IMG/VR virus record: IMGVR_UViG_3300012953_000080
Location: 1-37,644 of that record
Length of the DNA stretch: 37,644 nucleotides
Direction: 5' to 3' (one strand)
DNA from: a virus
Taxonomy: Duplodnaviria; Caudoviricetes
The notes below the pieces were generated by a model. It was not told where the DNA came from and did no database searches. It saw only the letters and a list, made by a program, of their open reading frames with translations. A program made the position numbers and the translations under genes. Positions 6,901-37,644 of this stretch are shown here, in pieces (within the stretch, counting starts at the first letter, position 1; every line of letters starts with the position of its first letter).

Positions 6901-9900
6901 AGCATCATCACCCAACGTTGTATTGCTATCAACCTGAAGGTTTCCATCAACCTCTGCATTATCAGTTATGTGAACCTTACCAGCATTGGAATCTAGGACA
7001 AGGTTGCCAGCAGTTGTGCTAATTTCATTGCTTGCATCAACACCAATCTTAATATCATCAGCAGTGATGTCAGTAGAGGTGATTGCCTGATTGAATGTTA
7101 CTGTACCTGTAACGGAATGAGCATCACCAGATGCGTTACCGATAGTAGCGTTTCCATCAACTATTAATGTACCATCAACTTTTGCATTTCCATCAACATT
7201 TAAATTATTATCTACGTCTAGATCATCAGTAACATTAACTGTACCGTTAGCAGAATCAAGGACTAGATTACCAGAGGTAGTACTAATCTCATTAGAAGCA
7301 TCAACACCAATTTTAATGTTATGAGCAGTGATATCTGTGGAAGTGATTGCTTGGTTGAACTGAACTGTTCCGTTGACAGTGTGTGTATCTGTTCCAGCAT
7401 TACCAATAGTTGCATTACCATCTACCGCTACAGTACCAGCGATTGTGGTGTTACCAGTAGCAGCAGCAACCGTGAATTTGCTAGTAGCGATGTCAAAGTT
7501 TCCATCGATACCAACATGAGAATCAACATCAAGAGTACCATCAATTTGTGTATTTCCAGCTACATCTACATTTTCTCCAACGAATAAACTTAATCCAATA
7601 CCAGCACCACCACCAACTATAAGTGCACCACTTGAAGCAGTAGTTGCATTAGTAGTATCAAATAATTTAACACTACCTGCGTCTATACCAGTACGAGTTC
7701 CACTAAACGCTTCAGAGGAGTTAGTAGCATTATGAAAGAGTGCAAATCTTGAAGCAGTATTATCCCATCCAAAGAATCCAACCTTAGCAGATCCATCATA
7801 ATAACGGAATTCAATACCACGATCTTTTGCATCTGCACCTGAAGGAGCAGTATCACCACCAAGAGTAAAGACAGGATCGTCTAAAGTCTGGGTAGTAGAA
7901 TTGATAGTTGTGGTTGTACCATTTACAGTAAGATTACCCTCTACAACGGTATTTCCACCCACTTCTAGGTTTTTCCCTGCAGCAAGAGTTACATCACCGT
8001 TAAACGTGCTTGTAGCGTTGACTGTGAGGGCATCAGTATCAGCATCACCAATCGTTGTTTGTGATCCTGTTATATTAACTTCTCTATTAAATGTTGCGTT
8101 ACCATGAACAGTTAAAGAACCATCAGTTGCGGTACCCTGTCCAACCCTACCAATTGTAGTAGCACCAGACTCACCTAATACTTGGAACTCAACGTTCTCG
8201 TTGGTTGTTGCCTTACCAATATAAAGGTCATCACCAATATGTAAATCCTGAACAATACCAGCACCACCAGAAACACGTAAGTTTGCATCTGCATCATCAG
8301 CAAATGCTGCATTATGTGCTGAGGTAGAACCAATATATTGACGATACTTGATATCTACATTATTAAGTAAAGAAGGTCTTGTACGAGCAGTACCAGCATC
8401 CTTAACTACGATACGATCAGATACATATAAATCTCCACCAACACGTGCGTCTACATCTACGTTAAGACCACCATCAATATCAACTGAACCTTCAGAAGAT
8501 TTAGTGATAGCAGACTCAGATGCAGTAGCATCAACTGTTATATTTGTTGTCTTCTCAAATGTTGCTAAAGAATTAATATTAACTGTGCCTTCAATATCTG
8601 TATTACCATTCGTTGAACTGACAAGGAATTTAGTATCAGTACCATTAGTAATCTTAAATTCTTTACCAGTGACATCCATTAGGAAGTCATTGTGGAAGAC
8701 TACATCATCATCAACATCTAATGTACTATTAAATGTTACTCCAGCATCAACATCTAGTGTGCTGTTAAATGTTACACCAGCATCAACATCTAGAGTACCA
8801 TCTGAATGTGTGTTACCGTTGTCTGTATCTATGTCAAATACACTGACACCAGCAGCAGTTTGAACATCAAATTTCTTATTGTCTGCTTTGATAATAACGT
8901 TATCAGTAATAGTGGTCTCTAGTTGAATATCAACTGTACCTTCTATTACTGTATTACCATTATCATAATCAACAGTAAACTTATCTACTCCAGCGTTAGT
9001 CTGTATATTAAATGACTTATTATCTGCTTTAAAGATTACATTATTATTAACTTCTGACTGTCCTGCAATAGTGACAGTACCACCTATATGTGCGTTCTCA
9101 GAGAGTCCTAATCCCCCCGTGACCACCAACGTGCCCGTCGTGGTGGAAGTTGATCCTGTGTTTGTTGTGAGTGCGAGGTTGCCAGCAATGATAGGAGCGT
9201 CAGTGCCAGTGAAAACTTCATTGGTGTTAGTGGCGTTGTAGAGGAACCTAAACCCGCCAGTGCTAGACCATAGGTTAGCATTTGCATAATCCTCGTCCCA
9301 CCCGAAGAACCCGAGCCTTGCTTGCGTGTCATAATACTTAAATTCTATACCACGATCTTTGTTATCGTCTGCTACTGGAGTAGTATCACCACCCAGTGTA
9401 AATATAGGATCATCAATGGTAACAACAGTTGAATTAACCGTGGTTGTTGTACCATCTACCTGTAGATCTCCACGAATCTGAACCTTACCAGAGATATCAT
9501 CGTCATCATTAGGATCCAATACCATTGTAGCATTGGTTGTAGAGAAAACGTTATCTTGGAAATGATAGTCCTCAACATTAACACGATGATCTACATCAGT
9601 CGCACTAATTGTAATATCTTGATCAGCAGTAATATTAATAGTTGCATCACCAGCACCAGCATTACCAGAATTAATATTTAATGCACGGTTAACTGATTCA
9701 TTGACTTCTAATGCAACTTCAAAGTTACCACTAGTTCTTTTTATAAATTGATCAGCCTTTGAAACATCTAAAGTAAGGTTTCCAGATAAGGTTGTGTCAA
9801 GATTAATATCTACAGCACCAGTGAGAGATGAACCACTTGTAGCACTTCCATTACCATTAGCAGTATCACTGTTAACAGCAGGATAGTTATTACCTTGAGA

Positions 9901-11247
9901 TAGAATAGAAGGTTGGAATGGGTACTCACCAGTATCATATCCAACTACTCGGAAAGCAGAACCACCACTACGGTTATTAATATTAAGATGGTTGATCTTA
10001 GTAATACCATGATATGCGTTATCAGTGGTTCTTTCCTTATCAAGATCAAATGTTTCAGTGGCAGCCTGGTCTGTAAACATTAGTTTACCACCAGATTGAA
10101 GTTGTGTATTTTCTACACTTGCTTCTGAAATACTTACGTGACCACCAATAGTTCCGTTGGTTCCGTCCCAAACAGTAACATCAAAATCTTCTTGAGCAAA
10201 AGACGCAAGACCTTTCTGCTCTATTTGTGCAGTCCAAAGGTATCTCCATCCACCTGCATCACTAGCATCAGTGTGTGATGGTTCTCCTAAACCAGCACCA
10301 ATATCTCTTATAGCAGCCTGATAAACTCTAGCACCACTTGTTTCAACTATTACAAATCTACTATATGCAGTTGCATTATCATATGCTGCGTATGTAGATC
10401 CCTCTTTAGCAGTGGCAATAGGAATTGTCTTTGCTTGAGTTGAACGACCATAACGGTCAAAAGTTATCTGAGAAGAGTTAACAGTCTCATTACCATTACC
10501 AGCAATTGATATTAGAGATGGGTCAAGGTTACCATTAGGGTTATATTGTCCAACAACAACAGCAGTATCAGCAAGATCAACTATAGGATTTAAACTTTGT
10601 CCTGAACCATTGGTTATAACAATTCTACCAGCACCACCAGTTACCTCTCTATTAGTAAGAGTACCAGCAGCAGAACGAGAAACGAGACCAAATCCCGTCA
10701 TGTTTGCTAACGAACTTAAGTCAGCATCAAGAGGTTGAACGTCAGTAATACCATAAGTTGAATAACTTGTAGGGTTTGACGCATTAATAACACGACCACG
10801 AGAGTCAAGTGTTATCTGTGTATATGTTCCTGTAGCAGATAAATTATTGGCATCGTAGTGTGGCAGTGACGTAACATAATTCAATTCAGCAGTTATGTTT
10901 ACGTTAGCAGATCCATCAAAGCTAGCAGAACCAGACATGTCACCTGCTAAAGTGAACGATCTAGTGTTGGCAAGACGAGTAGCAGTAGCAGCATTACCTA
11001 TAATTGATGCAGTTATGGCACCTGCAGCAAAGTTACCATCAGAATCACGTTTAACTAAAGTATTGGCAGTATTAGATTCCGTTTCAATTGGTCTCTCATA
11101 CTTAAGCGAGTTCCAAGGAGTTACACCATCACCGATCTTGATACGAGAAGTATCAATCTCAATTCCTAGTTCTCCTTGAGCAAGTATTGGGTTAACGTTA
11201 GCCCACTGTTGGGCACCATCACGTCTTAATTGTATTCTATTTGCCAT
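3931..11247 (-). CDS. long fibre protein (2438 aa) with Mtd_N/hyaluronidase-like N-terminal anchor, beta-repeat shaft and C-terminal repeats
   Basis: N-terminus IQLRRD...W...NPILAQGELGIExDT.RIKIGDGVTPWNSLKY is a common phage fibre anchor. The shaft has G/T/D/N/V-rich (GxLxV) repeats. The gene has its own perfect late promoter and occupies the pre-gp13 slot held by wac in T4. Confidence 0.85.
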   Translation of the reverse strand: MANRIQLRRDGAQQWANVNPILAQGELGIEIDTSRIKIGDGVTPWNSLKYERPIETESNTANTLVKRDSDGNFAAGAITASIIGNAATATRLANTRSFTLAGDMSGSASFDGSANVNITAELNYVTSLPHYDANNLSATGTYTQITLDSRGRVINASNPTSYSTYGITDVQPLDADLSSLANMTGFGLVSRSAAGTLTNREVTGGAGRIVITNGSGQSLNPIVDLADTAVVVGQYNPNGNLDPSLISIAGNGNETVNSSQITFDRYGRSTQAKTIPIATAKEGSTYAAYDNATAYSRFVIVETSGARVYQAAIRDIGAGLGEPSHTDASDAGGWRYLWTAQIEQKGLASFAQEDFDVTVWDGTNGTIGGHVSISEASVENTQLQSGGKLMFTDQAATETFDLDKERTTDNAYHGITKINHLNINNRSGGSAFRVVGYDTGEYPFQPSILSQGNNYPAVNSDTANGNGSATSGSSLTGAVDINLDTTLSGNLTLDVSKADQFIKRTSGNFEVALEVNESVNRALNINSGNAGAGDATINITADQDITISATDVDHRVNVEDYHFQDNVFSTTNATMVLDPNDDDDISGKVQIRGDLQVDGTTTTVNSTVVTIDDPIFTLGGDTTPVADDNKDRGIEFKYYDTQARLGFFGWDEDYANANLWSSTGGFRFLYNATNTNEVFTGTDAPIIAGNLALTTNTGSTSTTTGTLVVTGGLGLSENAHIGGTVTIAGQSEVNNNVIFKADNKSFNIQTNAGVDKFTVDYDNGNTVIEGTVDIQLETTITDNVIIKADNKKFDVQTAAGVSVFDIDTDNGNTHSDGTLDVDAGVTFNSTLDVDAGVTFNSTLDVDDDVVFHNDFLMDVTGKEFKITNGTDTKFLVSSTNGNTDIEGTVNINSLATFEKTTNITVDATASESAITKSSEGSVDIDGGLNVDVDARVGGDLYVSDRIVVKDAGTARTRPSLLNNVDIKYRQYIGSTSAHNAAFADDADANLRVSGGAGIVQDLHIGDDLYIGKATTNENVEFQVLGESGATTIGRVGQGTATDGSLTVHGNATFNREVNITGSQTTIGDADTDALTVNATSTFNGDVTLAAGKNLEVGGNTVVEGNLTVNGTTTTINSTTQTLDDPVFTLGGDTAPSGADAKDRGIEFRYYDGSAKVGFFGWDNTASRFALFHNATNSSEAFSGTRTGIDAGSVKLFDTTNATTASSGALIVGGGAGIGLSLFVGENVDVAGNTQIDGTLDVDSHVGIDGNFDIATSKFTVAAATGNTTIAGTVAVDGNATIGNAGTDTHTVNGTVQFNQAITSTDITAHNIKIGVDASNEISTTSGNLVLDSANGTVNVTDDLDVDNNLNVDGNAKVDGTLIVDGNATIGNASGDAHSVTGTVTFNQAITSTDITADDIKIGVDASNEISTTAGNLVLDSNAGKVHITDNAEVDGNLQVDSNTTLGDDATDTLTVNATSTFNAAITSTDITADNIRIGVAASSEIDTANGNLVLDSATGETQVDDNLTVTGTADISGLTTITDALTVKADNKLVSVQTAGGSTKFSIDTDNGNTDIQGTLNVEGATVIDDTFNVTQATDLDGTLNVDGVGTFQDNLILNADNKNFKIQLDNGTDKFTVASATGNTDIQGTLDVNGASNITNTLGVTGLTSLTNNTNPTSLAGNAALMVTAGGATIDEDLYVGSDIFVGANAATKVTINGATGNTDIVGTLDVTGNTTLAVLNVSSITTTATATIGGSIIVNTDKFQVTGSNGNTDIAGTLDVGGSTTIDDQFNVTGAVDFDTTLNVDGNSTFSGTITQNSTSLFKDDFVLRGASKTLKLQNGSGTDKIILNSTSGAATFEGLTTTNTLDVTSNSTIGGTLGVTGQITGNVTGELTGNAASTSLVNVTDTTTSNLTYYPAFVSTNTGNTEIRTDSTNFTYNPSTNRLTVDNFRSTTDFEVQGNLNITGNITFGQSQVGSIANHDTDALTEGSTNLYFTNERVDDRVDALITGGTGITATYDDAGNILTLSTTQADINTDNVTEGSTNLFTTAARTRTHFTYGTGVALSGGGELSVTQADINTDNVTEGSTNLFTTAARTRGHISATGSLSYNASTGVFSYTTPTTIASLSNHDTDDVAEGSNLYFTNERVDDRLNAVIVAGTGVTKVYDDAANTYTLSVTQADVNTDTVTEGSTNLFTTAARTRTHFTYGTGITHSSGTLSVTQADIDTDNVTEGSSNLFTTAARTRGHFTYGTGITHSGGTLSVTQSDINTDNVTEGSTNVFFTNARADARIAAADTDDLSEGSSNLYYTNARADARVVAGITGKLDASAVSVYGATLIDDADAAAARTTLGLGTAAVAATGDFATAAQGTTADAALAASAVSTFGGNLIDDADAAAARTTLGLGTVATTAATAYATAAQGATADSALQAETITLATLKAEVAASANFAAFKLRIAAL
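4010..4330 (-). repeat. two 51-aa (153-nt period) SAVS..LIDDADAAAARTTLGLGT repeats at the fibre C-terminus
   Basis: 28-nt identical core gcagcagcagcgtcagcatcatcaatta at 4115 and 4268. Confidence 0.9.
4350..5385 (-). repeat. eight TDx(V/L)xEGS(x)N(L/V)(F/Y) repeats in two subtypes (..FTTAARTR.. and ..YFTNERVDDR/NARADAR..)
   Basis: Read directly from the translation; the DNA copies are similar but synonymously diverged. Boundaries are approximate. Confidence 0.88.
8710..8800 (-). repeat. 36-nt tandem repeat encoding TLDVDAGVTFNS x2.5
   Basis: Translation reads TLDVDAGVTFNSTLDVDAGVTFNSTLDVDD, and the DNA copies are near-identical. Confidence 0.85.
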
Positions 11248-24194: not shown

Positions 24195-24201
24195 TATTTA
24201 G
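24195..24201 (-). promoter_or_regulatory. late-promoter variant CTAAATA overlapping the YHYH gene stop
   Basis: Lies 23 nt upstream of the gp9-like ATG, with an AAGGA SD between. Confidence 0.55.
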
Positions 24202-25778
24202 GTTTGATCGAATCGACTTGTTGTACTGTCGAACGTTGCATTAGTATTATCGAATGTATTATCTGTTGAACCACCCACACCAGTAACAGTAAGAGTAGCA
24301 ACATCAGATTCAAGTGGAGAGTTCTGAGCTGGTGTATCACCAGTCGGACCTGCAACAACACACTTAAACTTATACCCAGTCATGTACGACAATGCCGTAA
24401 ACTGGTAAGTAGATGAAGTTGCACCATTGAGAGTTGAATATGCGAATCCACCATCTGTAGATCTGTACCACTGATATGTCTTAGGTCCATCTTGAGGACT
24501 AATGCTGACCGAGATGGTAAACGTAGCAGTTTGACCAGAATTGACAGTAGAATTCTGAGGTTGTGCAGCAATCTGTAGTGTTGCTGGTGGTGCCTCACCA
24601 TCACCACCAGAAGGAGGTGCGGCTGGTGCTTGAGCACCATTATTTGCTGGTTGATCTAATACTTCTCTAGTAGTAACACCAATCATATAAGGGTAACCTG
24701 GATCACCCTGTTCATTCACACTAAGGAAATATGCATATGTACCAGCAGGATATTCTGGTGTAAAACAGAAACGTCCATTATGGTAATCTAAATCACCAAG
24801 ACCTTCATTATATTCCCAGTCTTGTATAAACGAACCAGCAGAAGGATTTGCTAATGAGTTTCCATAAGCAGGTCTTCCTGCTGTCTCTGTTGCTTTCAAT
24901 TGATAAGAAGACCTCATAGTCTTAATACCACTACTAACACCAAATGGTTCTACGTATGAATAAGGACCATACACAGGGAATCCATCAAATGAATAACCAA
25001 GGACTTTTGAATGTCCATCTGGATGTCTTAATGAATCACCGTTATACTGACTCAGACCATAGTAATCATTATATGTTGACATAATAGAATTATTATTCCA
25101 ACACTCAATAAAGTGCGTATCATGATAATGATACTGTCCAGTCTGTTCTGGATGACCACCACATGAATCATCACCAAAATCTACAGGTGAATATTCATAA
25201 TGCGCATTCCAATTAAATCCTGCGGGTGGGTTTCCACCAAGACCTGCAGATGGGTTAAAGATAACAACACCGTTTGCAACCATTCCAACTGCACCTAATG
25301 GTGTTTCTGTTCTACCATTTCTTTGATCATAATATGTGTATGTACCACTTACATATTGAGATGTACTTGTAACTAACTGTAAATTAGTATCAGTAGATCT
25401 CCAACAATATCCATTACTAGAAGTAAATGTTGTCCCATTATAAACAAACATTTGATGTCTACCATCACTAAATTTAAATAACAAATTATCTCCAGGTCTT
25501 ATCATTCCTGTAGTTTCATCACCCAATAATGTATTATCTGCAGAAGATAATGTAATGTTTATAGCATACCCTTCCTGAGTAAATGCATTACTATCAAATG
25601 CTCTTTCAACACCAAAGGTACCACCACGGTATGTGAAATCATGATCGAAATCTTGTTCAGTAACCGTATTGGGGTTATTCAGGTTGGGGAATGATCCAAA
25701 CGTAACAGGACTAGGTAGTCCGTTAGATGAAATATCTAAGATATTTGTGCCTGGATTGTAAGTGGCGGTAGCACTCAT
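24198..25778 (-). CDS. YHYH-domain protein with C-terminal Ig-like domain (526 aa)
   Basis: Motifs TPLGAVG...NGVVIFNP, D.CGGHP...GQYHYH, HSKVLGYSFDGFPVYGP and GDLD..NGRF..TPEYP.GTYAYF. The Ig-like part is IAAQPQNSTVNSGQTATF...YQWYRS. Confidence 0.87.
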   Translation of the reverse strand: MSATATYNPGTNILDISSNGLPSPVTFGSFPNLNNPNTVTEQDFDHDFTYRGGTFGVERAFDSNAFTQEGYAINITLSSADNTLLGDETTGMIRPGDNLLFKFSDGRHQMFVYNGTTFTSSNGYCWRSTDTNLQLVTSTSQYVSGTYTYYDQRNGRTETPLGAVGMVANGVVIFNPSAGLGGNPPAGFNWNAHYEYSPVDFGDDSCGGHPEQTGQYHYHDTHFIECWNNNSIMSTYNDYYGLSQYNGDSLRHPDGHSKVLGYSFDGFPVYGPYSYVEPFGVSSGIKTMRSSYQLKATETAGRPAYGNSLANPSAGSFIQDWEYNEGLGDLDYHNGRFCFTPEYPAGTYAYFLSVNEQGDPGYPYMIGVTTREVLDQPANNGAQAPAAPPSGGDGEAPPATLQIAAQPQNSTVNSGQTATFTISVSISPQDGPKTYQWYRSTDGGFAYSTLNGATSSTYQFTALSYMTGYKFKCVVAGPTGDTPAQNSPLESDVATLTVTGVGGSTDNTFDNTNATFDSTTSRFDQT

Positions 25779-25787
25779 TTTTCTGAT

Positions 25788-25795
25788 TATTTATT
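25788..25795 (-). promoter_or_regulatory. late promoter AATAAATA overlapping the giant gene's stop
   Basis: ATAAATA lies 9 nt before the ATG at 25778. Confidence 0.55.
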
Positions 25796-28700
25796 GTTGA
25801 AAGATCTGGGATGGATCGAAGTTGGAGACGACTGTGTTACCAGTTTGTACAGATAGGACTGCAGAGTTGGAGTAAACAGGAGTTGCACCAGCATAAGTGA
25901 TTGCAACACGGAACTCATCTGCGTCATCAGCTTGTATAGTTGCATTACTGTTATATGTTGCTGCTGTAGCACCAGTTATGTTAGCCCAGTTAGTTTCACC
26001 ATACTGCTTACGTTGCCACTGATAGTTAAGTCCGACTATTGTTTCAGCAGGATCACCATCTGCAGCACTGAAGTGTGCTACAACAGTGAAGCTAGCAGTC
26101 TGACCTTGGTTAACTGTTACGTTAGAAGGATTACGTGTGATAGCAATTAGACCAGCTTCAATTTCTATTGGTTCACCAGTTTGAGCATTAATTCCTTCAC
26201 CTGCGTAGACATCGAATCCACCGTTAACTGGAGGTCCATCTGGAGATACAAATGTATCTTCAACGGTATTTTCTACAGCAACGATTGGTTGTGCGTATCC
26301 AATACCTGCAGATCCAATATCAATTCTAGCAACGCCCATTAAGGCACGTACACGACCATCAAATCCAGTAGATGAAATAACACTAACTGAAGGAGTCTCA
26401 GTGTAACCGTTACCTGGGTTGGTAATTATTGTTTGCTCGATAGTACCAGAGCGAACACTTGCCAATGCAGCAGCATTACGTCCCTTAACAGTACCAGTAT
26501 ATTCGAATGTTACAAGAGAATTGGAAGACTCAATTAGTGCAACCTCACGTGGAACAATCTCATCTTCACCTTCGATGAAGAGTTGGTCACCTGCCTCAAT
26601 TGGAGGTACGACTGTAGCAGCAATAACGTCTGCGTCAGAACCAATGTAGGAGAATCCAACAAATGTTGTTCCCGCACGTGGGACTTCAGCAAAGATGATA
26701 CGTGAACCAACTAGTTCGTAACCTACGCCTGGTTCCTGAATAACACCGTTGAGTGAAACCATGATGTTATTCTCTGGTTTAATCACGTTAGACTGAACAC
26801 CTTCAGTTAGTGTTAATGAGTAGAATCCACCACTTTGCTTAAGGTTGAATGAAGATCTTAATGAGTCAAACTCGAAGGAAATATCATCCAACTGACGTAA
26901 TTTACCAATGTAGTATCCGATGAAATCAGATCCAACATCAGGTGCCTCAGCAAATGTGATAATGTCTGAGGATGCAGTGTAAGCACCAGTAGCACCAGGT
27001 GGTTGTAAAATTCCATTAACGAAGATCAACATGTGACCAGCAGGATCAGGTAGATATTGCTGACCATTAGAGATTGTAAGATTGAACTGTGTCTGCGTAC
27101 CGTCAAATCCACGGAAGTAACGATCAACACGTCCAAGTAAATTCTGAGCAGTTGATACACCAGCGATCCATCCACCATCGGACTTAACTGTCATGTTATC
27201 TACAAAATCACCTTGTACATCTTCTAACCAACAACGGGCAGTAATACCAGATTGTTCGATAGCAATTATCTTACCGTATGAAGAGTATCCTGTCTCAGTG
27301 TAGTTTGATGCTGTTGCATAGATTAATGGGAAGTTCTGTAAGTTATCAAACTTACCAATGTTGTATCCACCAGTTGCGGCTAAAGACCCATCAGGTTCAG
27401 TTGTTGGTTCTGATGCATCACCTGTCCAGTAATTTTGCAATCCAGCAATATAGAGATCGTTAACGTTATCGTCAGGTCTGTTATCATACTTGGTTACATA
27501 TCCCCACCAGCCAGGGTTTGTTGGTGTGGTTCCCTGAAGTAGATAAACTTTATCACCTTTAACAAATGTACCAGAATACTCACTGTCTGTAATTACCTGA
27601 GATAATGTTAGTTTTCTAACTTTCTCACCATGTATGTAGGTGTTAATTGTAATTGGAGAACCACCATCTGTAATGCCTACAAAATCAAGGATTTTTTCTG
27701 TCTTAGATCCGTAGATTATATCACCAGACTGGAAGGTACCAGTAATAGTTTCAACGTCTATTGTTACACGACCACCGCTATTATCTGTAAGAACACCTGA
27801 CTTATTATCATAACTGCTTAGATATGCTTCTGTAGCAGTGGTATCCTTAAACATCCAATCACCTTGTAGGAATTCACCTACCTTAGTGTTGATCAACATG
27901 CGATCTTCAACCACTGCAGTTACAATAGCAGTTGCACCAGAGTCAACACCTTCAATAGTTTGACCAGCAGAAATAGTTCCCTGAACTAGTTCAAGTTTGA
28001 TCCAACCTAATTGGTTCTCATCTCTAATAACCCTCTGCATTACATAACCATTATTAGCAGTTGCACCTTGTACTTGAACTTGCTCACCATTCACGAATGA
28101 TATGGAAGACATGGTATTTAAACCATAGTACTTGAAGGTTTTAACAATATCTGCATTGTTGATGAAACTGCTTGCAATTTCAGCAGATGCACCAGTTGTT
28201 GTACCAACTAGAACGTCAGCAATATTAAATCCAGCAGTTATTGGTTGATCAATATCACGTGTACCATAAGTGTTAGCAATACGATCAATTCCAGAACGAC
28301 GAACTGTGAAGAATTGCTGGTTACCAGCATTAGTTGTATCTAATGCAAATGGACGGTACCTTGCATCATGCTTAGGCATACGAGCAATCTCGAACCAATC
28401 TGCCTGTGCGTTGAGGACATAGTAATAAGGTTGATCATTAGCACCAGATAATGAATTAGCAGATGCAAGAACATATTTAACAACATCACCACGACGGAAG
28501 AAGTTAGTTCTATTAATTCGTGCACGATTCTCTTCTCTTTCATATCCAACTTCAACTGTTGGTGTTAGATTAACTAGAGCAGGATCGGTATTGTAATCAA
28601 CACCTTCATCGTACTTGTTAGAGTAGTTAACTACATCAGTAGCAGCATTAAATGTTACTAAGTTATCTGTTGGGAATGTTGCTCTTTCTATAGCAAATTC

Positions 28701-31700
28701 TAAGCAGTTTAGTGAACTATCAAAATTAAATTCTGTAGTTTCCTGATCCCATTCTAGGTGACGACGATATCCTTGTACTTCAGGATAACGGTAAACATCG
28801 TAAGTATTCCATCCAGCATTCTCTGGATCTTGAACAACTTCCTTAGCATATTCTCTTATTTTGTTTACACCATATAATAAACGAATTCTATCTACAGTAG
28901 GATAAGCGATGAATTGACCTTCTCCATCAAACCATGTTCCAGCAAGTTCAAACGCAGAAGCATTACCATCTGTAGTTAAATCATATATACCTGCTTCAAG
29001 AACTGCCTGGAAGAATGGTAAATCTGGATTGTCACCAAGAGGATAATTTGCTAGAGTTGCAGCAAGAGCACGTGAAGTAATTGCTTGATCATTAAATCTC
29101 AAGTAATGTCCTGTATTGCGATTAGAGTATGAACCAGCACCAAGAGTATCCGTAATTAAATCAAACGCAGTGGTCATTGCTGAAACAACGTTATAGCAAG
29201 TATACTGTTGATAAAGTGTATTGGTGTATGGTGGTACAGTTCTTGTTAAACCACTTAAGTGATTTGTATTAGTCTTAGCACTTTCTATTGTATTAACAAC
29301 AACATCAAATAATGTGCTTATAGCAGAAGCAGTAGTTGAACATGTTTGATCCCAAGTTGCAGCAGCAGTTTGATATGTGACTGTTAGATCTCTCTCAGAA
29401 ACGTCACCGTGATAATGGCATGGCCAGATAGATGGTAACGAGCGATTAACAGAATCAAGACTTGAACCAGAATTGATGGTATCTGTAATAATACCAAACA
29501 TGGTAGTTATTGTTGCAGCAACATTAGCACAAGGACCATTACCTGAACCTGTAGGTAATGTACGAGTACCACTAACTGCATTGGTGCTAATTGCATCCAT
29601 CACAATATCAATTAATGTAGTTGCAGCAGCGACCTCTGTTGGACATGCTGGTTGCGTTACATCAGTAGTAATTGTTGTATCTCTATACTGAATTAGGTTG
29701 TGGGTACCATATACAGGGGTCTGAATATTTCTAATAATTTGAGTAATGATTTCTTTGGTAAGAGTCATAATACCAAGACTCCATTTCTCCTCAAAGTAAT
29801 TGTTGAGGTGAGTCTGAGTAACATACTCCATCGCCATATCATATATCTCATTGTTACCACCATATGCAATATGGTATGCAACACCTCTCAATATACGCTC
29901 AACGTCATCACAGCAATTCTGATTTCCACCAGGAATTGTGTAAAGTTTGTTGATTGAATTATCATGTGCACGTACAAACTTATGGGTGTAAGAACCACCA
30001 GTTTGTATAGCACCAGAAGTTGCACTCACAAATGTATGATCATGCACTCCACCAGTGATTACACATGCCTTAGTAATACCATCATTTGAACCACTTACGA
30101 ATGTATGTACAGTAACATTGGTTGAAGGAATAACATCAAGAACAACAACTTCAAATGTGTCAGTAGTTACATTTTGTACTTTCAACCATCTACCTGACAT
30201 TGGGTCAGTAGATCTAGGATATGCATGGTTTCCACCACCTTGTGTACAAGTGAAGGTTACAGCATCATCATCGAATTTAACATATTCATCATTCTCTAAT
30301 TTATGAGCAGCAGCAGTCTTAATTGTCATCACACCTGTTGTTGGATCATAAGTTGTACCTGAAGCAGCAGTCAACTTATTCTCCATTCCTACCCATACGT
30401 GAGCATGTTGATTAGCAGGGAGAGAATCATAACCAACGTTAATTGTAACGGTACCAGTTTGTTTTAAGATTCCATTAGCAACAGCAGATGCAAAGTTGTG
30501 TTGTGATGTATTTTGAGATATACCAACGTTTACATCAAACTCATTTGTTTGTACGTTGAATATTGGTAACCATCTTCCAGCAAACGGATCAGTTGCACGA
30601 GGATATGGATGAAGTGAACCGAAGTCGTCTTTACCACAACGGAAGACTAATGAATCATTTACAATCTGGATGTAAGCATTTGCTTTCTCGATTCCACCAC
30701 TTGCTGCGGAAACGAATGTATGTGTATAGTTACCACCAGTGATCAATGCCTTAGTTTGTTTCTTAAGTGCACTACCAACAGAACTTACAAATTTGTGTGC
30801 ATAGTTACCACCAGCAATTACTGAGTTAGCAAGTGCAGATTGGAATACATGAGTTGTAGTATTTGTAGACGGTACATTATTAAGAACATTGATTGTTATG
30901 GAAGTAGAGTCAGCAGCAATGATAGGTAATGAATTATCATATGATGGGTCACGCTTGGCAAGTATACCATTAGCAGATGTTGCTGTACATACGTGAGTAG
31001 TTGTATTTGTTGAAGGAATATTATCAAGTACAACGACAGTAAACTTACTAGCATTTACATAAGTAATCTTCAACCAACGACCATTTACAGGGTCGGATGA
31101 ACGTGGATATGTATGATCGCTTGCTTGACCATCTTCATCACATCTGAAGGTTAATGAATTTTGAGCAATCTGAATCCAATCTCCAGTGTTTAAATTATGA
31201 GGTCCAGCGGTCTGGATCATCAAAACACCAGTAGTAGGATTATATGTTGTACCACCAGATACAGCAGTATGATTATCAGTAAGACTTCTAGGATATGCAT
31301 GATCTGATGATTGACCATCTTGATCACAACGGAAAGTAAGTGCATTCTCTGCTAACTTAATACTGTCTCCCTGTGAAAGGGTATGTGATCCAATAACGAT
31401 CTGCATATTACCCGTAGTTGGGTTGTATGAAGCACCAGTTGGAGTGTAATTTACTATAGGAGTGCTGCCAACATTTACATCGAAAGTATTTTCTGTGATG
31501 TTAGATACATCCATCCACTTACCTGATACAGGGTCGGATGAACGTGGATAGGTATGATCTGTAGCATAGTCATCCATCTCACATTTGAATGTAATTCCAT
31601 CATCATCAATCTTAACTTTTTCACCTAGATTGAATCCATGCTTAGGAACAGTAACAGTCATCTTACCACTTGATGCTGTATATGATGCATCGATGATAGT

Positions 31701-34700
31701 ATGTGATGTTTGACCAGTAGCAGCATTAACGAAGTTGTGAGCAAACTGATTTGAACTAGCAGCAACACCAACATCAACAGTGATTGTTTTCTCTGTAGAA
31801 TGAACTATATGAAGTGGTACATTATATGCAGGATCACTAGATCTTGGATATGCATGATCTGTAGCGTAGTTGTCTTGTGCACAACGGAATGTTAATGAAT
31901 TTGCTTCAAGTTTAACAGTCTCACCAGCATGTCTAATACCATTCTTTGCAGCAGCAACGAAGGCATGTGATGTAGTGTTAGTTGGTGAAGTTCCCTGAAG
32001 AATATTACATTCAAATGTATTTGTTTGTACGTTTGATATAGTAATAAACTTATCACTAGCAGGATCAGAAGCACGTGGATATGTGTGCTCAGTTTGATTA
32101 CTATCCTGACCACATGTGAATGTTAATGAATGATCAGCAACCCTTATCTTATCACCATTAGCAAATCCATGATTAGGAACAGTAAGAGTTAATAAACCAC
32201 TAGAAGCATTATAAGTAGCACCCGTTGCTGTATGATCTGTATGACCACGAAGACCGTGAGGTCCAGGTGTGGTAAGAGTCATATAACCAGTTGTCTGATT
32301 ATACTCAGCATTAGATACATCCCACTGTACTATTGGAGATTTACCAACAATAACTTCGAATGTGTTTGTTGTGACAGAGGTAATTGTTAACCACTTATTT
32401 GCAACAGGATCACTCTTTCTTGGATATGTGTGGTTGGAAGATCCACTATCCATTGTGCACTGGAATGTTAATGAATTAGGAGCAATCTTAATTTGATCAC
32501 CAGCAGTAAATCCATGACTGTTTAGAGTCATTTTCATTACACCAGTCTTAGCATTATACTGTGCACCAGTTACCTGATGTGTAGTTGATGCAGCAAAGTT
32601 ATGTCCACTAATTTCCAGTGTCATTACACCAGTTGTAGGTACATAAGTTGCATCAGTAGCAGTATGTTGTGTTGATCCTACAGAATCAACATTAATAGAG
32701 GTATTGAAGAATGGATCTGCTCCACCATCTCCTGCGATTCTTCTAGGATATGTTTTCTGTGCAGAGTTTCCATCCATTGCACAAGTAAACTTCAGAGTTT
32801 CAGCACCAAGTTTTAACTTATCACCTGTCTTCAATCCGTGTGATCCAATGGTTAGAACCATTACACCAGTTTGATGATCATAAGTTGCAGTTGATACATC
32901 ATAATTAACATTTGGTGTTGAACCAACGTTGATAGTGATTGATCCGTCTTGCTTCTCTAATCCATTGTTAGAAGCACTAACAAATATATGTGCAGATTTA
33001 TTAGGGGAAGCACCGATATTAACTTGGAATGAACTTCCTGATACTCCAGAAATAACTAACCACTCATCACTGAATGGATCTGTTGCACGTGGATATCTAT
33101 GCCATGTATCATGTTGATCAGCAGCACATGTGAATACTAATGATCCATCTGCAATTCTAACTCTGTTACCATTAGAGAATCCATGATCAGGTATCTGGAT
33201 AACTAAGTTACCAGAACTAGGATCATAAGTTGCACCTGTAACTGTCTTAGATATAGTACCAACTTCCTGAATTACAATATTAGTATTTCTAGTTGGATCG
33301 GATGCTCTTGGATAAGTATGGTTTGTACCATTATTATCCATACTACATGTGAATGTTAAAGAATCATCAGCAAGTTTAATTGTTGATTTTTCAGTTAGAT
33401 TATGTAAACCAATATTCAACCACATATCACCAGTTTCAGGATTATATGTAGCAGCAGTTGGAGTGTAATTAACAGCAGCAGTTGTTCCAACATTTACGGT
33501 AACGGTACCGTCTTGACTCTTAACACCACCAGTTACAGCAGAAACAAAGGTATGCTGATATAGTGGGTTGAATTGAATAGCACCAGCAAGAGCAGACTGC
33601 CATACGTGAGTTGTGTTATTAGAAGAAACACCAACGTCAATAGTAATAGTTGTACCAGTTATTGCAGTAACAGGAACATGCTGTTCGAATGATCTATCAC
33701 GCTTTTGCTTAATTCCATTAGCAGTACCACTTACAAATGTATGAGTAGTTACGTTTGTAGAAGGTGTAGTTGTTAAGACTTTAACTGTAAATGTTTGTCC
33801 AACAACAGCGGAAACTTGTAACCACTTACCACTTACAGGGTCAGTAGATCTTGGATATGAATGGTTGCCACCACCCTCTAAACAAGTAAAGGTTACAGCA
33901 TTATCTTCAAACATTACCCAGTCACCTACCTTAATACCATGTGTGGTTCCTGTGTCAACAACCATGAGACCTGTAGTTGGACTATATGTTGTACCAGTAG
34001 TAGCCTGATGTGTATCAATTATATTTCTTGGATATGCATGATCGCTTGCTTGACCATCTTCATCACAACGGAAGGTTAATCCTCCAGTCTTGATCATAAC
34101 TTTAGAATCGACAGAAAGATCATGAGATCCGATTGTTAACTCAAGAAGACCAGTAGTCGGAGTGAATGCTGCAGCAGTTGGAGTGTACTCAATAACTGGA
34201 GCAATATGTACATCAACTTTAAAACTATCGTTCCATGCTTCTGTTACTGGTAACCACTCGTCACTAGCATAGTCAGTATATCTTGGATATGGATGTAGTG
34301 ATTGATGATTATCAGCATCACATGTAAATGTAAGTGCACCATCTTCAATTAAGACAGAATCATTTGCTTTCTCAAATGTTGATTTAGTAATTGCGTTACT
34401 TGCAGTTCCACCATTATATGTGTGGACTGTTGTATTTGTAGAAGGAGCATTTGCCAATACCTGAACATCGAGTGTGTCAGTAGTAACATTGAATGCTCTA
34501 ACATGTCCTGCAGCAGCAGGGTCAGCATGTGTAATTCCGTTAGCAGCACCACTTACAAATACGTGAGCACTAACGTTACTTGAAGGAGTAATCTCAAGTA
34601 CTTTGACTTCAAATGTACTTGCTGTAACATTTGATATTCTTAAGAACTTACCACTAGCAGGGTCAGATGAGCGAGGATATGTGTGGTTAGTAGCATTGTT

Positions 34701-37644
34701 ATCTCTTGCACAAGTAAAGGTTAATGCGTTATCAGCAAACTTAATCCACTCACCATTTGCTAAGTTATGAGCAGAAGTTGTTGTGATGCTCAATATACCT
34801 GTAGTTGGATTATATGTTGTACCTGTAGTAGCCTGATGTTGTGATACTTGTGCACGAGGGTAACTATAAGTACCCCCACCTTGTGTGCAAGTAAAGTCTA
34901 ATGAACCGTCAGTAATCTTAATAAATTCGCCATTCTCAATTCCGTGTCCTGCACTAGTAAGTGACATTACACCTGTTGTTGGATTGTAGTCAGCAGCAGT
35001 TACATTTAACTGAGCAGTAGCAACAAACTTATGTTGACCAGCAGCAGCAGTCTTACCAATCTGTACTTCAAATGTACCGTCAGTTATATTGAATACAGGT
35101 AACCACTTATCACTAGATGGGTCAACACCCTTACGTGGATATGTGTGGTTTGTATTGTAGTTATCATTATCACACTGGAATGTTAATGCATCATGTGAGA
35201 ACTTAATTCTATCTCCATTTCTGAAGTTATGATTAGCAACGGCTAATTTCATAATACCAGACTCAGGATCATAATCTGCATCAGATACAGTATATGCTTC
35301 TGATTGTCTTAATCCATGTCCAGCAAGAGTTAAAGTTAATGCACCTGTTTCAGCATTATAATCTGCATCTGTTGGTGTATATGCAGTACTACCAACGGCA
35401 GTAATTGCTAATCTTTCATTGTATGAAGGATCAGTTTCACGAGGATAACTATGCTCTGAAGCATGACCATCTTGATCACAAGTAAAGATTAATGCATTTG
35501 CATCTATAGAAATAGAATCATTAGTAGTTAAATTATGTGATGGTAGAGATAATACTAGATTACCAGTTGCAGCATCATATGTTGCATCAGATGGAGTAAA
35601 CTCAGTTACAGGTGTTAAATCATTATCTCTTGTATAACGATATACTGCTTCTTCAGCAACAAAACGAGAGTTGTTGAGAATTAACTGATAAGTATCAGCA
35701 GACTTATTGACATTAATACCACCAACTAACTGTGATGCTTCCATAGTAGGATTGTCACGATCCTTACTATTATAAGGATAATGGTCTAATTGTTCAAAGA
35801 ATGTCTGAACCTTACCGTGAAGATTTTGACCACGTGCAATAATTGGAATATTACGCATCGCCTGAATTGCCATATCTCTTGCCTGATTAAAGGCATATAT
35901 TGGCATCTGATTTGTTAAATGATATGTTGATGCACTTCTATAGAAATCAGCAGCATCCCAAACTCTACTGTTTCCACCGTACTTCATATTGAAGACCATA
36001 GAACGTAGGAAGTCACATACATCATCCGTACAAGACTTATCACCATTAGTGATATGAAGTTGTGGATATTGAATATTTGCACGATATACTGCTTCTTCTG
36101 AGATGAATCTAATATTACGTTCTATAATATTAGCAGCATCAATTTGTCTTGAAACAACTGGGTTTTGATCGTATGAACTAACACCAGGATCATTAGCACC
36201 AACAAGTGTATTAACATCACCAACACCTTGAGCATAGAAGTTATCACGTCCAAAAGCATTTCTCATTGTGAGAATTGCCATATCTCTTGCTACCTTATAA
36301 GTGTAGATAGATGCATCTTCTTCATCCTTAATATGTTTGATACTATTATTTTCTGGTTCGATATAGTAGTTCGAAGCATCCCAAACCTTACTATTACCAC
36401 CAAGACGAAGATCGTGAATAACTGCGTCAAGATAGTCATTAACATCATCAACACAATCTTGCTGAGTTTGACCTGCAGGATAAGTATGATCTTGGAATCT
36501 AGCAGTATCGTTCATTGTATGAACTGCTTCCCAAGCAATTTGATCCTTATTCCTTTCGATCATATCAGCTGCATCTAGGAATCTATCTCCATCAGAGCGT
36601 CCTGGATCATAACCTTGTGAATCAGGTAGGAAGGTTATTGTATCCCAATCAGCATCAGTATTATGAACTGTAGTAGGAGCAAGTTGTGTGTATACAGCAG
36701 TGTAGTAATCATCTATATTTGTTTGACCTTGATTACTATCAGGTGAATTACCAAACTGAACTAGAAGTTGGTTTGCTGCTTTAATTGATAAGAACTTAGT
36801 AAATTCAATAGCATCCAACATTGGAAGAAGTTCTTCATCTACATGAAGGATATCCTTCTCCTCATTTAAATACCTGTCAATAACTTCATTAGTACCAGCA
36901 TTACCACCAGTAATTAGATCGGCAATAATACCAGGAATAACGAAGTCTTTAATATCTCTTTCACAATATGGTTGACCATAACCAGGCATCTCTAACTTAT
37001 CATAAGTTGTGCCATTAATTTCGACTTGCCACTTATCCTGAATATAACCAGCAACCTCTTCAGCAATGAAATCACGGTTCTGCCACATAGCATCACCAGC
37101 ATCACGATATCTGTCACCAGTAGGTCCAAGAATATCAAGAATACCATTAACTAATGATGTAACTTCATTCTGTACGGTTGAAGATGCAGGAGATGAGAAG
37201 TTGTTAGGAACACGTAATCTATCAGTATACTTAACAGTCTCATAGTTCTCTAAATCACTACTTGTTGTAGTGATTACAAAGTTCATTATCTCTCCAACTT
37301 TCTGCCAAGCATACAGAGTTTGTAGGAGTTCTTTATTAACGAAATCTAATCCACCAGTTGCAGTTAAGTATCCTTTAGCAGCAACAGTAGTATAGTAGTT
37401 ACCACCATACTTAAGATCTTTAATGATAGCATCGATGATATACTCTTCAGTATCCCTTAAGCAATAGTAAGTACCAAGGTAGTTATTAGTTGAAGGATCA
37501 TCACCAGGAATAGTAAAGTCCGAGAACTTAGCCTTCATCATTGCAACAGCAGTCTCAGAAATCCACTTATCATTCTGTAGTATGGATGCTGCAGCACGAC
37601 GATGCTCATCTCTACCAAGATCTACATCTTCAATAATTACACGA
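25791..37644 (-). CDS. giant baseplate-associated structural protein (cyanophage 'gp7' position), >3950 aa, 5'-truncated
   Basis: The frame stays open from 37541 to the window end (RVIIEDVDLGRDEHRRAAASILQNDKWISETAVA-MMKAK), so the true start is outside the window. It contains helical C-x-(R/D)-D repeats, 18 His/Cys beta-repeats, FDG..T.F.L / LDDIS..FD / LNGV.QEPG modules and a terminal Ig-like domain. The gp7 label is positional only. Confidence 0.85.
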   Translation of the reverse strand, partial: RVIIEDVDLGRDEHRRAAASILQNDKWISETAVAMMKAKFSDFTIPGDDPSTNNYLGTYYCLRDTEEYIIDAIIKDLKYGGNYYTTVAAKGYLTATGGLDFVNKELLQTLYAWQKVGEIMNFVITTTSSDLENYETVKYTDRLRVPNNFSSPASSTVQNEVTSLVNGILDILGPTGDRYRDAGDAMWQNRDFIAEEVAGYIQDKWQVEINGTTYDKLEMPGYGQPYCERDIKDFVIPGIIADLITGGNAGTNEVIDRYLNEEKDILHVDEELLPMLDAIEFTKFLSIKAANQLLVQFGNSPDSNQGQTNIDDYYTAVYTQLAPTTVHNTDADWDTITFLPDSQGYDPGRSDGDRFLDAADMIERNKDQIAWEAVHTMNDTARFQDHTYPAGQTQQDCVDDVNDYLDAVIHDLRLGGNSKVWDASNYYIEPENNSIKHIKDEEDASIYTYKVARDMAILTMRNAFGRDNFYAQGVGDVNTLVGANDPGVSSYDQNPVVSRQIDAANIIERNIRFISEEAVYRANIQYPQLHITNGDKSCTDDVCDFLRSMVFNMKYGGNSRVWDAADFYRSASTYHLTNQMPIYAFNQARDMAIQAMRNIPIIARGQNLHGKVQTFFEQLDHYPYNSKDRDNPTMEASQLVGGINVNKSADTYQLILNNSRFVAEEAVYRYTRDNDLTPVTEFTPSDATYDAATGNLVLSLPSHNLTTNDSISIDANALIFTCDQDGHASEHSYPRETDPSYNERLAITAVGSTAYTPTDADYNAETGALTLTLAGHGLRQSEAYTVSDADYDPESGIMKLAVANHNFRNGDRIKFSHDALTFQCDNDNYNTNHTYPRKGVDPSSDKWLPVFNITDGTFEVQIGKTAAAGQHKFVATAQLNVTAADYNPTTGVMSLTSAGHGIENGEFIKITDGSLDFTCTQGGGTYSYPRAQVSQHQATTGTTYNPTTGILSITTTSAHNLANGEWIKFADNALTFTCARDNNATNHTYPRSSDPASGKFLRISNVTASTFEVKVLEITPSSNVSAHVFVSGAANGITHADPAAAGHVRAFNVTTDTLDVQVLANAPSTNTTVHTYNGGTASNAITKSTFEKANDSVLIEDGALTFTCDADNHQSLHPYPRYTDYASDEWLPVTEAWNDSFKVDVHIAPVIEYTPTAAAFTPTTGLLELTIGSHDLSVDSKVMIKTGGLTFRCDEDGQASDHAYPRNIIDTHQATTGTTYSPTTGLMVVDTGTTHGIKVGDWVMFEDNAVTFTCLEGGGNHSYPRSTDPVSGKWLQVSAVVGQTFTVKVLTTTPSTNVTTHTFVSGTANGIKQKRDRSFEQHVPVTAITGTTITIDVGVSSNNTTHVWQSALAGAIQFNPLYQHTFVSAVTGGVKSQDGTVTVNVGTTAAVNYTPTAATYNPETGDMWLNIGLHNLTEKSTIKLADDSLTFTCSMDNNGTNHTYPRASDPTRNTNIVIQEVGTISKTVTGATYDPSSGNLVIQIPDHGFSNGNRVRIADGSLVFTCAADQHDTWHRYPRATDPFSDEWLVISGVSGSSFQVNIGASPNKSAHIFVSASNNGLEKQDGSITINVGSTPNVNYDVSTATYDHQTGVMVLTIGSHGLKTGDKLKLGAETLKFTCAMDGNSAQKTYPRRIAGDGGADPFFNTSINVDSVGSTQHTATDATYVPTTGVMTLEISGHNFAASTTHQVTGAQYNAKTGVMKMTLNSHGFTAGDQIKIAPNSLTFQCTMDSGSSNHTYPRKSDPVANKWLTITSVTTNTFEVIVGKSPIVQWDVSNAEYNQTTGYMTLTTPGPHGLRGHTDHTATGATYNASSGLLTLTVPNHGFANGDKIRVADHSLTFTCGQDSNQTEHTYPRASDPASDKFITISNVQTNTFECNILQGTSPTNTTSHAFVAAAKNGIRHAGETVKLEANSLTFRCAQDNYATDHAYPRSSDPAYNVPLHIVHSTEKTITVDVGVAASSNQFAHNFVNAATGQTSHTIIDASYTASSGKMTVTVPKHGFNLGEKVKIDDDGITFKCEMDDYATDHTYPRSSDPVSGKWMDVSNITENTFDVNVGSTPIVNYTPTGASYNPTTGNMQIVIGSHTLSQGDSIKLAENALTFRCDQDGQSSDHAYPRSLTDNHTAVSGGTTYNPTTGVLMIQTAGPHNLNTGDWIQIAQNSLTFRCDEDGQASDHTYPRSSDPVNGRWLKITYVNASKFTVVVLDNIPSTNTTTHVCTATSANGILAKRDPSYDNSLPIIAADSTSITINVLNNVPSTNTTTHVFQSALANSVIAGGNYAHKFVSSVGSALKKQTKALITGGNYTHTFVSAASGGIEKANAYIQIVNDSLVFRCGKDDFGSLHPYPRATDPFAGRWLPIFNVQTNEFDVNVGISQNTSQHNFASAVANGILKQTGTVTINVGYDSLPANQHAHVWVGMENKLTAASGTTYDPTTGVMTIKTAAAHKLENDEYVKFDDDAVTFTCTQGGGNHAYPRSTDPMSGRWLKVQNVTTDTFEVVVLDVIPSTNVTVHTFVSGSNDGITKACVITGGVHDHTFVSATSGAIQTGGSYTHKFVRAHDNSINKLYTIPGGNQNCCDDVERILRGVAYHIAYGGNNEIYDMAMEYVTQTHLNNYFEEKWSLGIMTLTKEIITQIIRNIQTPVYGTHNLIQYRDTTITTDVTQPACPTEVAAATTLIDIVMDAISTNAVSGTRTLPTGSGNGPCANVAATITTMFGIITDTINSGSSLDSVNRSLPSIWPCHYHGDVSERDLTVTYQTAAATWDQTCSTTASAISTLFDVVVNTIESAKTNTNHLSGLTRTVPPYTNTLYQQYTCYNVVSAMTTAFDLITDTLGAGSYSNRNTGHYLRFNDQAITSRALAATLANYPLGDNPDLPFFQAVLEAGIYDLTTDGNASAFELAGTWFDGEGQFIAYPTVDRIRLLYGVNKIREYAKEVVQDPENAGWNTYDVYRYPEVQGYRRHLEWDQETTEFNFDSSLNCLEFAIERATFPTDNLVTFNAATDVVNYSNKYDEGVDYNTDPALVNLTPTVEVGYEREENRARINRTNFFRRGDVVKYVLASANSLSGANDQPYYYVLNAQADWFEIARMPKHDARYRPFALDTTNAGNQQFFTVRRSGIDRIANTYGTRDIDQPITAGFNIADVLVGTTTGASAEIASSFINNADIVKTFKYYGLNTMSSISFVNGEQVQVQGATANNGYVMQRVIRDENQLGWIKLELVQGTISAGQTIEGVDSGATAIVTAVVEDRMLINTKVGEFLQGDWMFKDTTATEAYLSSYDNKSGVLTDNSGGRVTIDVETITGTFQSGDIIYGSKTEKILDFVGITDGGSPITINTYIHGEKVRKLTLSQVITDSEYSGTFVKGDKVYLLQGTTPTNPGWWGYVTKYDNRPDDNVNDLYIAGLQNYWTGDASEPTTEPDGSLAATGGYNIGKFDNLQNFPLIYATASNYTETGYSSYGKIIAIEQSGITARCWLEDVQGDFVDNMTVKSDGGWIAGVSTAQNLLGRVDRYFRGFDGTQTQFNLTISNGQQYLPDPAGHMLIFVNGILQPPGATGAYTASSDIITFAEAPDVGSDFIGYYIGKLRQLDDISFEFDSLRSSFNLKQSGGFYSLTLTEGVQSNVIKPENNIMVSLNGVIQEPGVGYELVGSRIIFAEVPRAGTTFVGFSYIGSDADVIAATVVPPIEAGDQLFIEGEDEIVPREVALIESSNSLVTFEYTGTVKGRNAAALASVRSGTIEQTIITNPGNGYTETPSVSVISSTGFDGRVRALMGVARIDIGSAGIGYAQPIVAVENTVEDTFVSPDGPPVNGGFDVYAGEGINAQTGEPIEIEAGLIAITRNPSNVTVNQGQTASFTVVAHFSAADGDPAETIVGLNYQWQRKQYGETNWANITGATAATYNSNATIQADDADEFRVAITYAGATPVYSNSAVLSVQTGNTVVSNFDPSQIFQQ
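29943..35616 (-). repeat. block of 18 nested ~100-aa repeats (AxYxPxTG..H..LxFxC..HxYPR..DP..HxFVS)
   Basis: Hand count: 18 opening motifs, 18 FxC...YPR cores and 18 closing His motifs. Boundaries are approximate. Confidence 0.88.
35617..37644 (-). repeat. helical repeats R.DA..I..N..(F/W)I..E.V...C.(R/D)D....A...DL..GGN (four in this span plus the N-half of a fifth, completed at ~29942-29700)
   Basis: Cys codons at 37461-37463 (CLRD), 36963-36965 (CERD), 36453-36455 (CVDD), 36030-36032 (CTDD) and 29910-29915 (CCDD). Confidence 0.82.

Follow-up and report, generated by a model that had tools for sequence, protein, structure and literature searches.

A nested tree of 18 predicted beta-barrel units in a gp7-position protein of a T4-like marine cyanophage

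Gene block and giant protein

The window (the whole stretch of DNA analyzed here, 37,644 nucleotides) is the structural gene block of a T4-like marine cyanophage, and all its genes are on the minus strand. The largest feature is a giant baseplate protein at the gp7 position (25791-37643, minus strand; 3950 aa; phrog_701/18802/5342). Its ORF is 5'-open at the window end, and the N-terminal part and gp6 lie beyond the window. Orthologues with ~90% identity reach at least 5949 aa (contig L016). The other genes of the block encode a YHYH/Ig protein, a gp9/10-like connector, a wedge subunit, gp8, a DUF4815 protein, a long fibre-like protein, neck and sheath-stabiliser proteins, and the small terminase.

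The giant protein belongs to the cyanophage gp7 family by both gene order and homology. The ORF is followed by gp9-like, gp8, and neck genes in the T4-like order, and the order gp7-gp9-x-gp8-VrlC of P-SSM4, where gp7 is annotated (7312 aa), matches that of the window. Outside the repeats, the C-terminal 692 aa are 40% identical to P-SSM4 gp7 (E = 3e-131). In S-CREM2 virions, a protein at the gp7 gene position was detected by mass spectrometry according to Table 3 of PMC10665884; it corresponds to the protein described here by position only.

Two other proteins of the block have features of their own. The YHYH-domain protein (24198-25778, minus strand) has a C-terminal Ig-like domain similar to the one that ends the giant ORF (31% over 112 aa). 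The fibre-like protein (3931-11247, minus strand; 2438 aa) starts with Mtd_N and contains long beta-helix-like repeats, and near its C-terminus (aa ~1960-2300) there are near-exact tandem repeats of ~37 aa.

The repeats of the giant protein occupy 29943-35606 on the minus strand (aa 680-2567, from about aa 676). A Pfam search of this region gave no hit. The region matches 366 phage records, every one with less than 60% identity, and all 366 are named Synechococcus, Prochlorococcus, Cyanophage, or Marine. A search for more copies of the repeat unit in the rest of the giant ORF and in eight additional large ORFs of the window found none.

Nested order of the units

The giant ORF contains 18 YPR motifs, 18 hairpin openers, and 18 F-x-C cores. 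The earlier note, made from the letters of the sequence, had counted equal numbers of openers, cores, and closers; the motif counts agree for openers and cores. Hand-tuned regular expressions for five segment types gave 18, 18, 18, 17, and 18 matches, with a false closer at aa 1681, a missed closer at aa 2554, and a missed strand at aa 2368.

The formal parse was obtained by jump-alignment, in which free jumps between profile positions are allowed without any stack rule; the stack was laid over the result afterwards. The barrel profile consists of 44 uninterrupted units from related loci. They were found with a seed of the six leaves of the window, and the six leaves and three atypical units were then dropped. 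The alignment of the giant protein contains 18 openers and 13 continuations. With a tolerance of 8 positions, 12 of the 13 continuations resume at the suspension position of the innermost open unit, two of them under a clause allowing an unseen short strand, and no unit is left open. The 13th continuation is a 9-aa orphan beyond the closed tree. When all segments were shuffled, 12 or more resumes occurred in 0 of 200,000 trials, and when the continuations alone were permuted, 12 resumes occurred in 6 of 200,000. The proper bracket nesting previously read by hand is thus recovered by a parse that contains no nesting rule.

The tree is (1(2(3)(4(5))(6(7)))(8(9)(10(11(12(13(14))(15(16(17))))))(18))). 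It is 8 levels deep, and a hand reading that places unit 15 within the final strand of unit 13 makes it 9, in agreement with the earlier estimate of 8-9 levels. The four insertion loops named alongside that estimate (after the first His, between YPR and DP, after the post-DP strand, and before the closing His strand) are all real, and a fifth site was found after the His of the closing strand. Units 4, 15, and 18 come after the His strand of units 3, 13, and 10, respectively, and the last few residues of these hosts reappear afterwards. It is the counting of this fifth site that gives depth 9.

All parts of the tree (29943-35606) are on the minus strand. Unit 1, the root, has its first piece at 35385-35606, resumes at 33474-33518, and closes at 29943-30002. 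The subtree of unit 2 (units 2-7; 33519-35384) is inserted after the post-DP strand of unit 1, and that of unit 8 (units 8-18; 30003-33473) before its closing His strand. Unit 11 has its opening hairpin at 32586-32672, and the remainder, with the core, YPR, and the closing strand, follows 635 aa later at 30459-30680. The six uninterrupted leaves are unit 5 (34524-34841), unit 7 (33705-34013), unit 9 (32949-33254), unit 14 (31926-32240), unit 17 (30957-31274), and unit 18 (30066-30380).

With boundaries set by hand, the 18 rejoined units, 102-109 aa long, take up every one of the 1888 residues of aa 680-2567, with neither gaps nor overlaps. Each rejoined unit scores 87-143 bits over at least 96 of the 105 profile positions, and the units are mutually 25-57% identical. 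As the earlier note states, the ~100-aa unit is interrupted by other units and not tandem. The pile-up of deferred closing strands is also seen, with three closing strands in succession at aa 2265-2321. Because these three closers are consecutive, a linear permuted array formed from adjacent segments is impossible. A tandem or circularly permuted array with a fixed cyclic order of segments was rejected, as runs of openers and runs of closers are observed and the stack order holds. An assembly artefact was also rejected, since the DNA repeats are old (60-85% identical) and the same segment pattern is observed in three other contigs (L001, L016, and L017; ~90% aa identity). The nested architecture is almost certainly real.

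Relatives of the protein were analyzed as 120 listed of 196 homologues. In these 120 relatives, suspensions cluster near profile positions 26, 56, 72-75, 81-83, and 95-97, with a minor site at ~22. Among their host-leaf-resume triplets, 73 of 81 resume within 6 positions of the suspension, in related proteins whose events are not independent; shuffling gave a mean of 31 and a maximum of 43 in 10,000. The orthologue P0001, 47% identical, shares segments 2b to 14 in order and has two extra guests in unit 13. P-SSM4 gp7 has 11 units in a tree different from that of the window; its parse gives 11 openers, 8 resumes, and one mismatch, settled by eye from a degenerate closing strand near aa 5325. 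In the distant loci L002-L014, of which several are incomplete and which contain segments outside the barrel profile, a simple parser left 2-5 units open in 13 of 13. These loci and L018-L022 constitute a second lineage, with a different tree and an extra insertion site near profile position 22.

The residue at profile position 65 provides an independent check of the one ambiguous pairing, that of units 11 and 13. In the relatives, 71 of 78 guests at the pre-closing site lack Trp/Phe at this position, and 153 of 186 guests at other sites have it. The last-in-first-out pairing of units 11 and 13 fits the subtype of both units, while the crossed pairing fits neither.

The barrel tree itself interrupts a helical module, between the first helix and the C-x-x-D...GGN segment. 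Three earlier helical modules likewise lack their last helix ahead of the tree. The four modules left open are located at 35646-37112 (minus strand; aa 178-259, 354-465, 498-598, and 647-666), and four Cys-bearing closing helices come after the tree, at aa 2666, 2702, 2768, and 2816. The fourth module, host to the entire barrel tree, has its remaining part and its closing helix at 29589-29915, and the three more deferred closing helices, those of the outer modules (aa 2702, 2768, and 2816), are at 29133-29540, both on the minus strand. The helical modules, on the two sides of the tree at 35646-37643 and 29133-29915, contain conserved Cys and show a weak Pfam hit to phycobiliprotein (E = 1e-7 summed). 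Judged by segment order, with a helical-module profile from two sequences only and without a null test, the whole tree appears to lie inside four nested helical modules, which adds up to 12-13 levels in all.

A second kind of short repeated beta motif is observed at ~27200-28400 (minus strand; aa 3090-3480 of the giant ORF) and at aa 1700-2000 of L016; these motifs lie to either side of the helical nest. In L016, a stretch that we take to be LamG-like seems to interrupt one of them. The nesting may continue outward past the helical modules.

Predicted fold and growth of the tree

The subtree of units 15, 16, and 17 (30756-31709, minus strand; 319 aa) was modelled with AlphaFold2 using 48 alignment rows, chosen for register agreement with the profile and not hand-edited. 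Two structure alignments took 52 and 44 homologues, picked for register agreement with the profile. The three-level model has a pLDDT of 92.6 and a pTM of 0.76, and both deferred closing strands are confident. It consists of three concentric barrels, and solved single barrels align to the ranges 1-319, 85-300, and 143-252. Among the 50 structural matches listed, 12 span 1/4-319, 15 span 84/86-300, 22 span ~143-252, and one has another range, with 65-87 aligned residues per match. The concentric ranges coincide with the stack pairing, and each closer is placed on its stack partner.

The best match listed is the barrel of the phi92 endosialidase (4hiz; Z 9.0, rmsd 1.9, 76 residues, 16% identity). 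The next ones listed are the neck protein of phage FCWL1 (9jlf_E; Z 8.0) and the E1 FCCH domain (Z 7.2-7.8), followed by common barrels of the reductase/EF-Tu type (Z 5-6.4). The top matches overall show Z 7.2-9.0 and rmsd 1.9-2.7 over 75-77 residues, of which the rank 1 match alone exceeds the usual chance range of the aligner. A Foldseek search of the 319-aa model found nothing clear in PDB, and against viral models mostly other cyanophage proteins. When PDB sequences were searched with the alignment, no relative came up (best E 0.06). At the sequence level, none of the six leaves passes the Pfam gathering score for PF12195 or PF16190; matches to PF12195 (End_beta_barrel) are weak in two of the six (E 0.09-0.11, far below the threshold). 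The relative P0019 passes the cut-off of PF16190 (FCCH).

The barrel unit superposes on the solved small closed beta-barrels of endosialidase and FCCH. Each unit is thus predicted to be a six-stranded beta-barrel of the endosialidase-barrel/E1-FCCH type, and carries an added F-x-C...YPR hairpin. As modelled, the barrel unit is the same fold as the endosialidase barrel and not a filed member of that family.

Unit 11 was also modelled as two separate chains, one for each of its halves, which lie 635 aa from each other. The pair scored 0.70, and the best control scored 0.04; the mark is reached by 116 of 157 solved pairs versus 2 of 215 mismatched pairs. The runs have at least 91% of their contacts in common, and the partner pLDDT is at least 75. 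Halves of one domain can pass this test by likeness to solved barrels, and preference for a particular opener is outside its scope. A six-level model of 739 aa has a pTM of 0.36, and deferred closers show a pLDDT below 50 where the alignment is out of register. No clear Foldseek match was found for the 739-aa model, and a second aligner matched the leaves alone. The three-dimensional nesting is therefore modelled to three levels only. To that depth, the idea that excised inner and rejoined outer units fold alike is borne out by the models, in which both the concentric barrels and the two halves of unit 11 adopt one fold.

Another reading is that the bracket order is history only, with strands swapping between units or chains, or with permuted neighbours forming a linear array. 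The units are 25-57% identical, so their strands may be interchangeable; the two-chain test of unit 11 does not show specificity, and the deep closers have low confidence in the 739-aa model. However, runs of openers and of closers cannot make whole barrels from neighbours, the three-level model puts each closer on its stack partner, and the distant halves are concordant in the position-65 subtype. T4 gp7 is, in addition, monomeric (PMC3004832, table). This reading is very improbable.

In the reading preferred here, the segments follow a last-opened-first-closed order to a depth of 8-9, with the whole tree putatively within four nested helical modules, and each split unit would refold from its separated pieces, as the models suggest. 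A guest would then hang from a loop of its host by two strands. The ends of the barrel adjoin, which would suit it to either role, guest or host; close termini generally favour domain insertion (PMC13114784, section 2.2).

Guests at the same site are 41% identical to each other, compared to 36% for guests at different sites (13 of 20,000 permutations). The five guests inserted before the closing strand cluster with the root unit, with weak support except for units 6 and 16, which group at 98/96. The DNA repeats are 60-85% identical, and the repeat families D11 and D19 span host-guest junctions. The two extra guests in unit 13 of P0001 are most similar to the subtypes that occupy the corresponding sites in the window. 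Across relatives, about five insertion sites are used repeatedly, each with guest subtypes of its own, and whole units are gained or lost. Such a pattern points to the copying of host-plus-guest cassettes.

T4-like phages are well equipped for homologous recombination. In the simplest scenario, a few junctions, in about five loops, would have arisen once by non-homologous insertion, and homologous recombination between paralogous units would then have copied host-plus-guest cassettes over plain units. By such copying, any leaf could become a subtree. Growth by repeated insertion of a self-similar module, as proposed in the earlier note, fits the data, but the evidence favours the reuse of a few old host-plus-guest junctions over fresh insertions.

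Possible function and known systems

Since each copy is predicted to be a small beta-barrel, the region is likely to be a branched appendage. The explanation we favour, and consider reasonably probable, is a nested 18-barrel tree in a gp7-position protein that likely forms a branched appendage pointing outward from the baseplate and, by analogy, likely serves as a multivalent scaffold for host-surface adhesion. In T4, gp7 is monomeric, and six copies of it sit at the periphery of the baseplate (PMC3004832). With six copies per baseplate as in T4, about 108 barrels would be carried by each particle.

The adhesion part follows from the nearest solved barrels. The endosialidase barrel is reported to carry a polysialic-acid site and to affect host discrimination (PMC12632334), and FCCH domains are described as pointing outward on siphophage tail tubes (PMC13576161); both favour a multivalent adhesion scaffold. 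The same unit is also nested in unrelated proteins of 640-1100 aa (P0043, P0044, P0019, P0030, P0034, and P0040), which match phrog_1276 and the tail-fibre family phrog_17885. Its presence in separate virion proteins indicates that the module moves between virion genes, and the tail-fibre matches are counted toward adhesion by analogy. The least certain step is that the barrels might bind surface glycans weakly with high avidity, and that the variable tree might tune host contact.

The tree could instead be real but have a purely structural role, as a spacer, a strut, or a hydrodynamic arm placing distal domains or fibres without itself binding anything; its size would drift because each insertion is nearly neutral. 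The most conserved residues, His24 (95%), Cys43 (98%), Asp59 (98%), His92 (97%), and YPR, could be purely fold-defining. The DNA copies are old (60-85% identical), the number of units varies (11 in P-SSM4 and 18 in the window), and T4 gp7 is a scaffold (PMC3004832). On the other hand, spending ~1900 aa per copy on a neutral feature is expensive, several distinct virion proteins, fibre-like ones included, contain the module, and the nearest solved domain is a glycan-binding barrel. We consider a purely structural role unlikely.

The conservation of His24, Cys43, and His92 at 95-98% over 384-582 segments also fits a metal ion in each barrel, bound by these residues and often by Asp46/His52, which would lock the deferred closing strand or display Fe/Zn. 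Of 180 complete units, 40 have lost Asp46 and His52 as a pair, and each unit has one Cys, thus no partner for a disulfide within the unit. However, the confidently predicted contacts to the His24-bearing opener do not include Cys43, though a residue missing from that set is simply uncertain. The metal motif of phage fibres is of the trimeric His-x-His type, from which the unit motif differs. Metal-binding phage fibres have been proposed in print (PMC11705849; 10.1101/674382). Metal binding by the barrels seems rather improbable.

Beyond the multivalent adhesion scaffold, a bolder picture can be offered tentatively: a cyanophage protein dendrimer, in which one chain with at least 12 nesting levels of two folds, regrown from leaf to subtree between lineages and present in about six copies per baseplate, might form a hundred-site canopy for glycan or metal binding that governs how hosts are captured in dilute seawater.

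The complex case put forward by a 2026 survey of 2.7 million domains is nested to six levels (PMC13114784). The tree in the window goes deeper, using a single self-similar module, and its family is widespread. Because the root barrel can close only after ~1870 further residues have been made, the protein makes it possible to test how deeply discontinuous domains fold. For the design of branched proteins, the tree offers a natural scaffold whose five loops are permissive, and it is a concrete candidate for the variable structures by which abundant ocean viruses contact their hosts. It shows why collinear alignment and domain annotation overlook such proteins. In the literature searched, which was light on subscription papers, nested barrels in cyanophage gp7 are not described.

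Among known proteins, T4 gp7 (119 kDa, three domains; PMC3004832) shares the genomic position with the protein described here, and the gp7 of P-SSM4 (7312 aa) is homologous at the C-terminus, with 11 units in a different tree. The endosialidase barrel (PF12195, 4hiz), the FCCH domain (PF16190), and 9jlf_E resemble the unit, and are small accessory domains of larger proteins. The units of the window differ from the endosialidase and FCCH barrels in scoring below both Pfam thresholds and in the extra F-x-C...YPR hairpin, and self-nesting of those barrels is not described in the literature examined.

In architecture, the tree works like two known systems and belongs to neither. In the evolved Dit of Efquatrovirus, a siphophage, a carbohydrate-binding module lies in a loop of a similar module, itself inside a galectin domain (PMC13517437). 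The fold is different, and Dit as described there contains one self-similar insertion, compared to 17 in the window's protein. In SI3 of the cyanobacterial RNA polymerase RpoC2, one small beta domain is recursively self-inserted, with 8 domains on 6 levels in the showcase described (PMC13114784). As in the window, domains of the same fold lie inside one another over several levels. The host protein of SI3 is the beta' subunit of RNA polymerase, whereas the tree here lies in a phage structural gene block. Judging by the structural matches, the fold probably differs as well: the hybrid-motif (HABAS) domain is absent among the 50 matches listed, and the best matches of the units are to another barrel type. 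In contrast to the 8 domains and 6 levels of SI3, 18 domains on 8-9 levels (12-13 with the helical hosts) are nested here at about five sites, and the trees differ between related phages.
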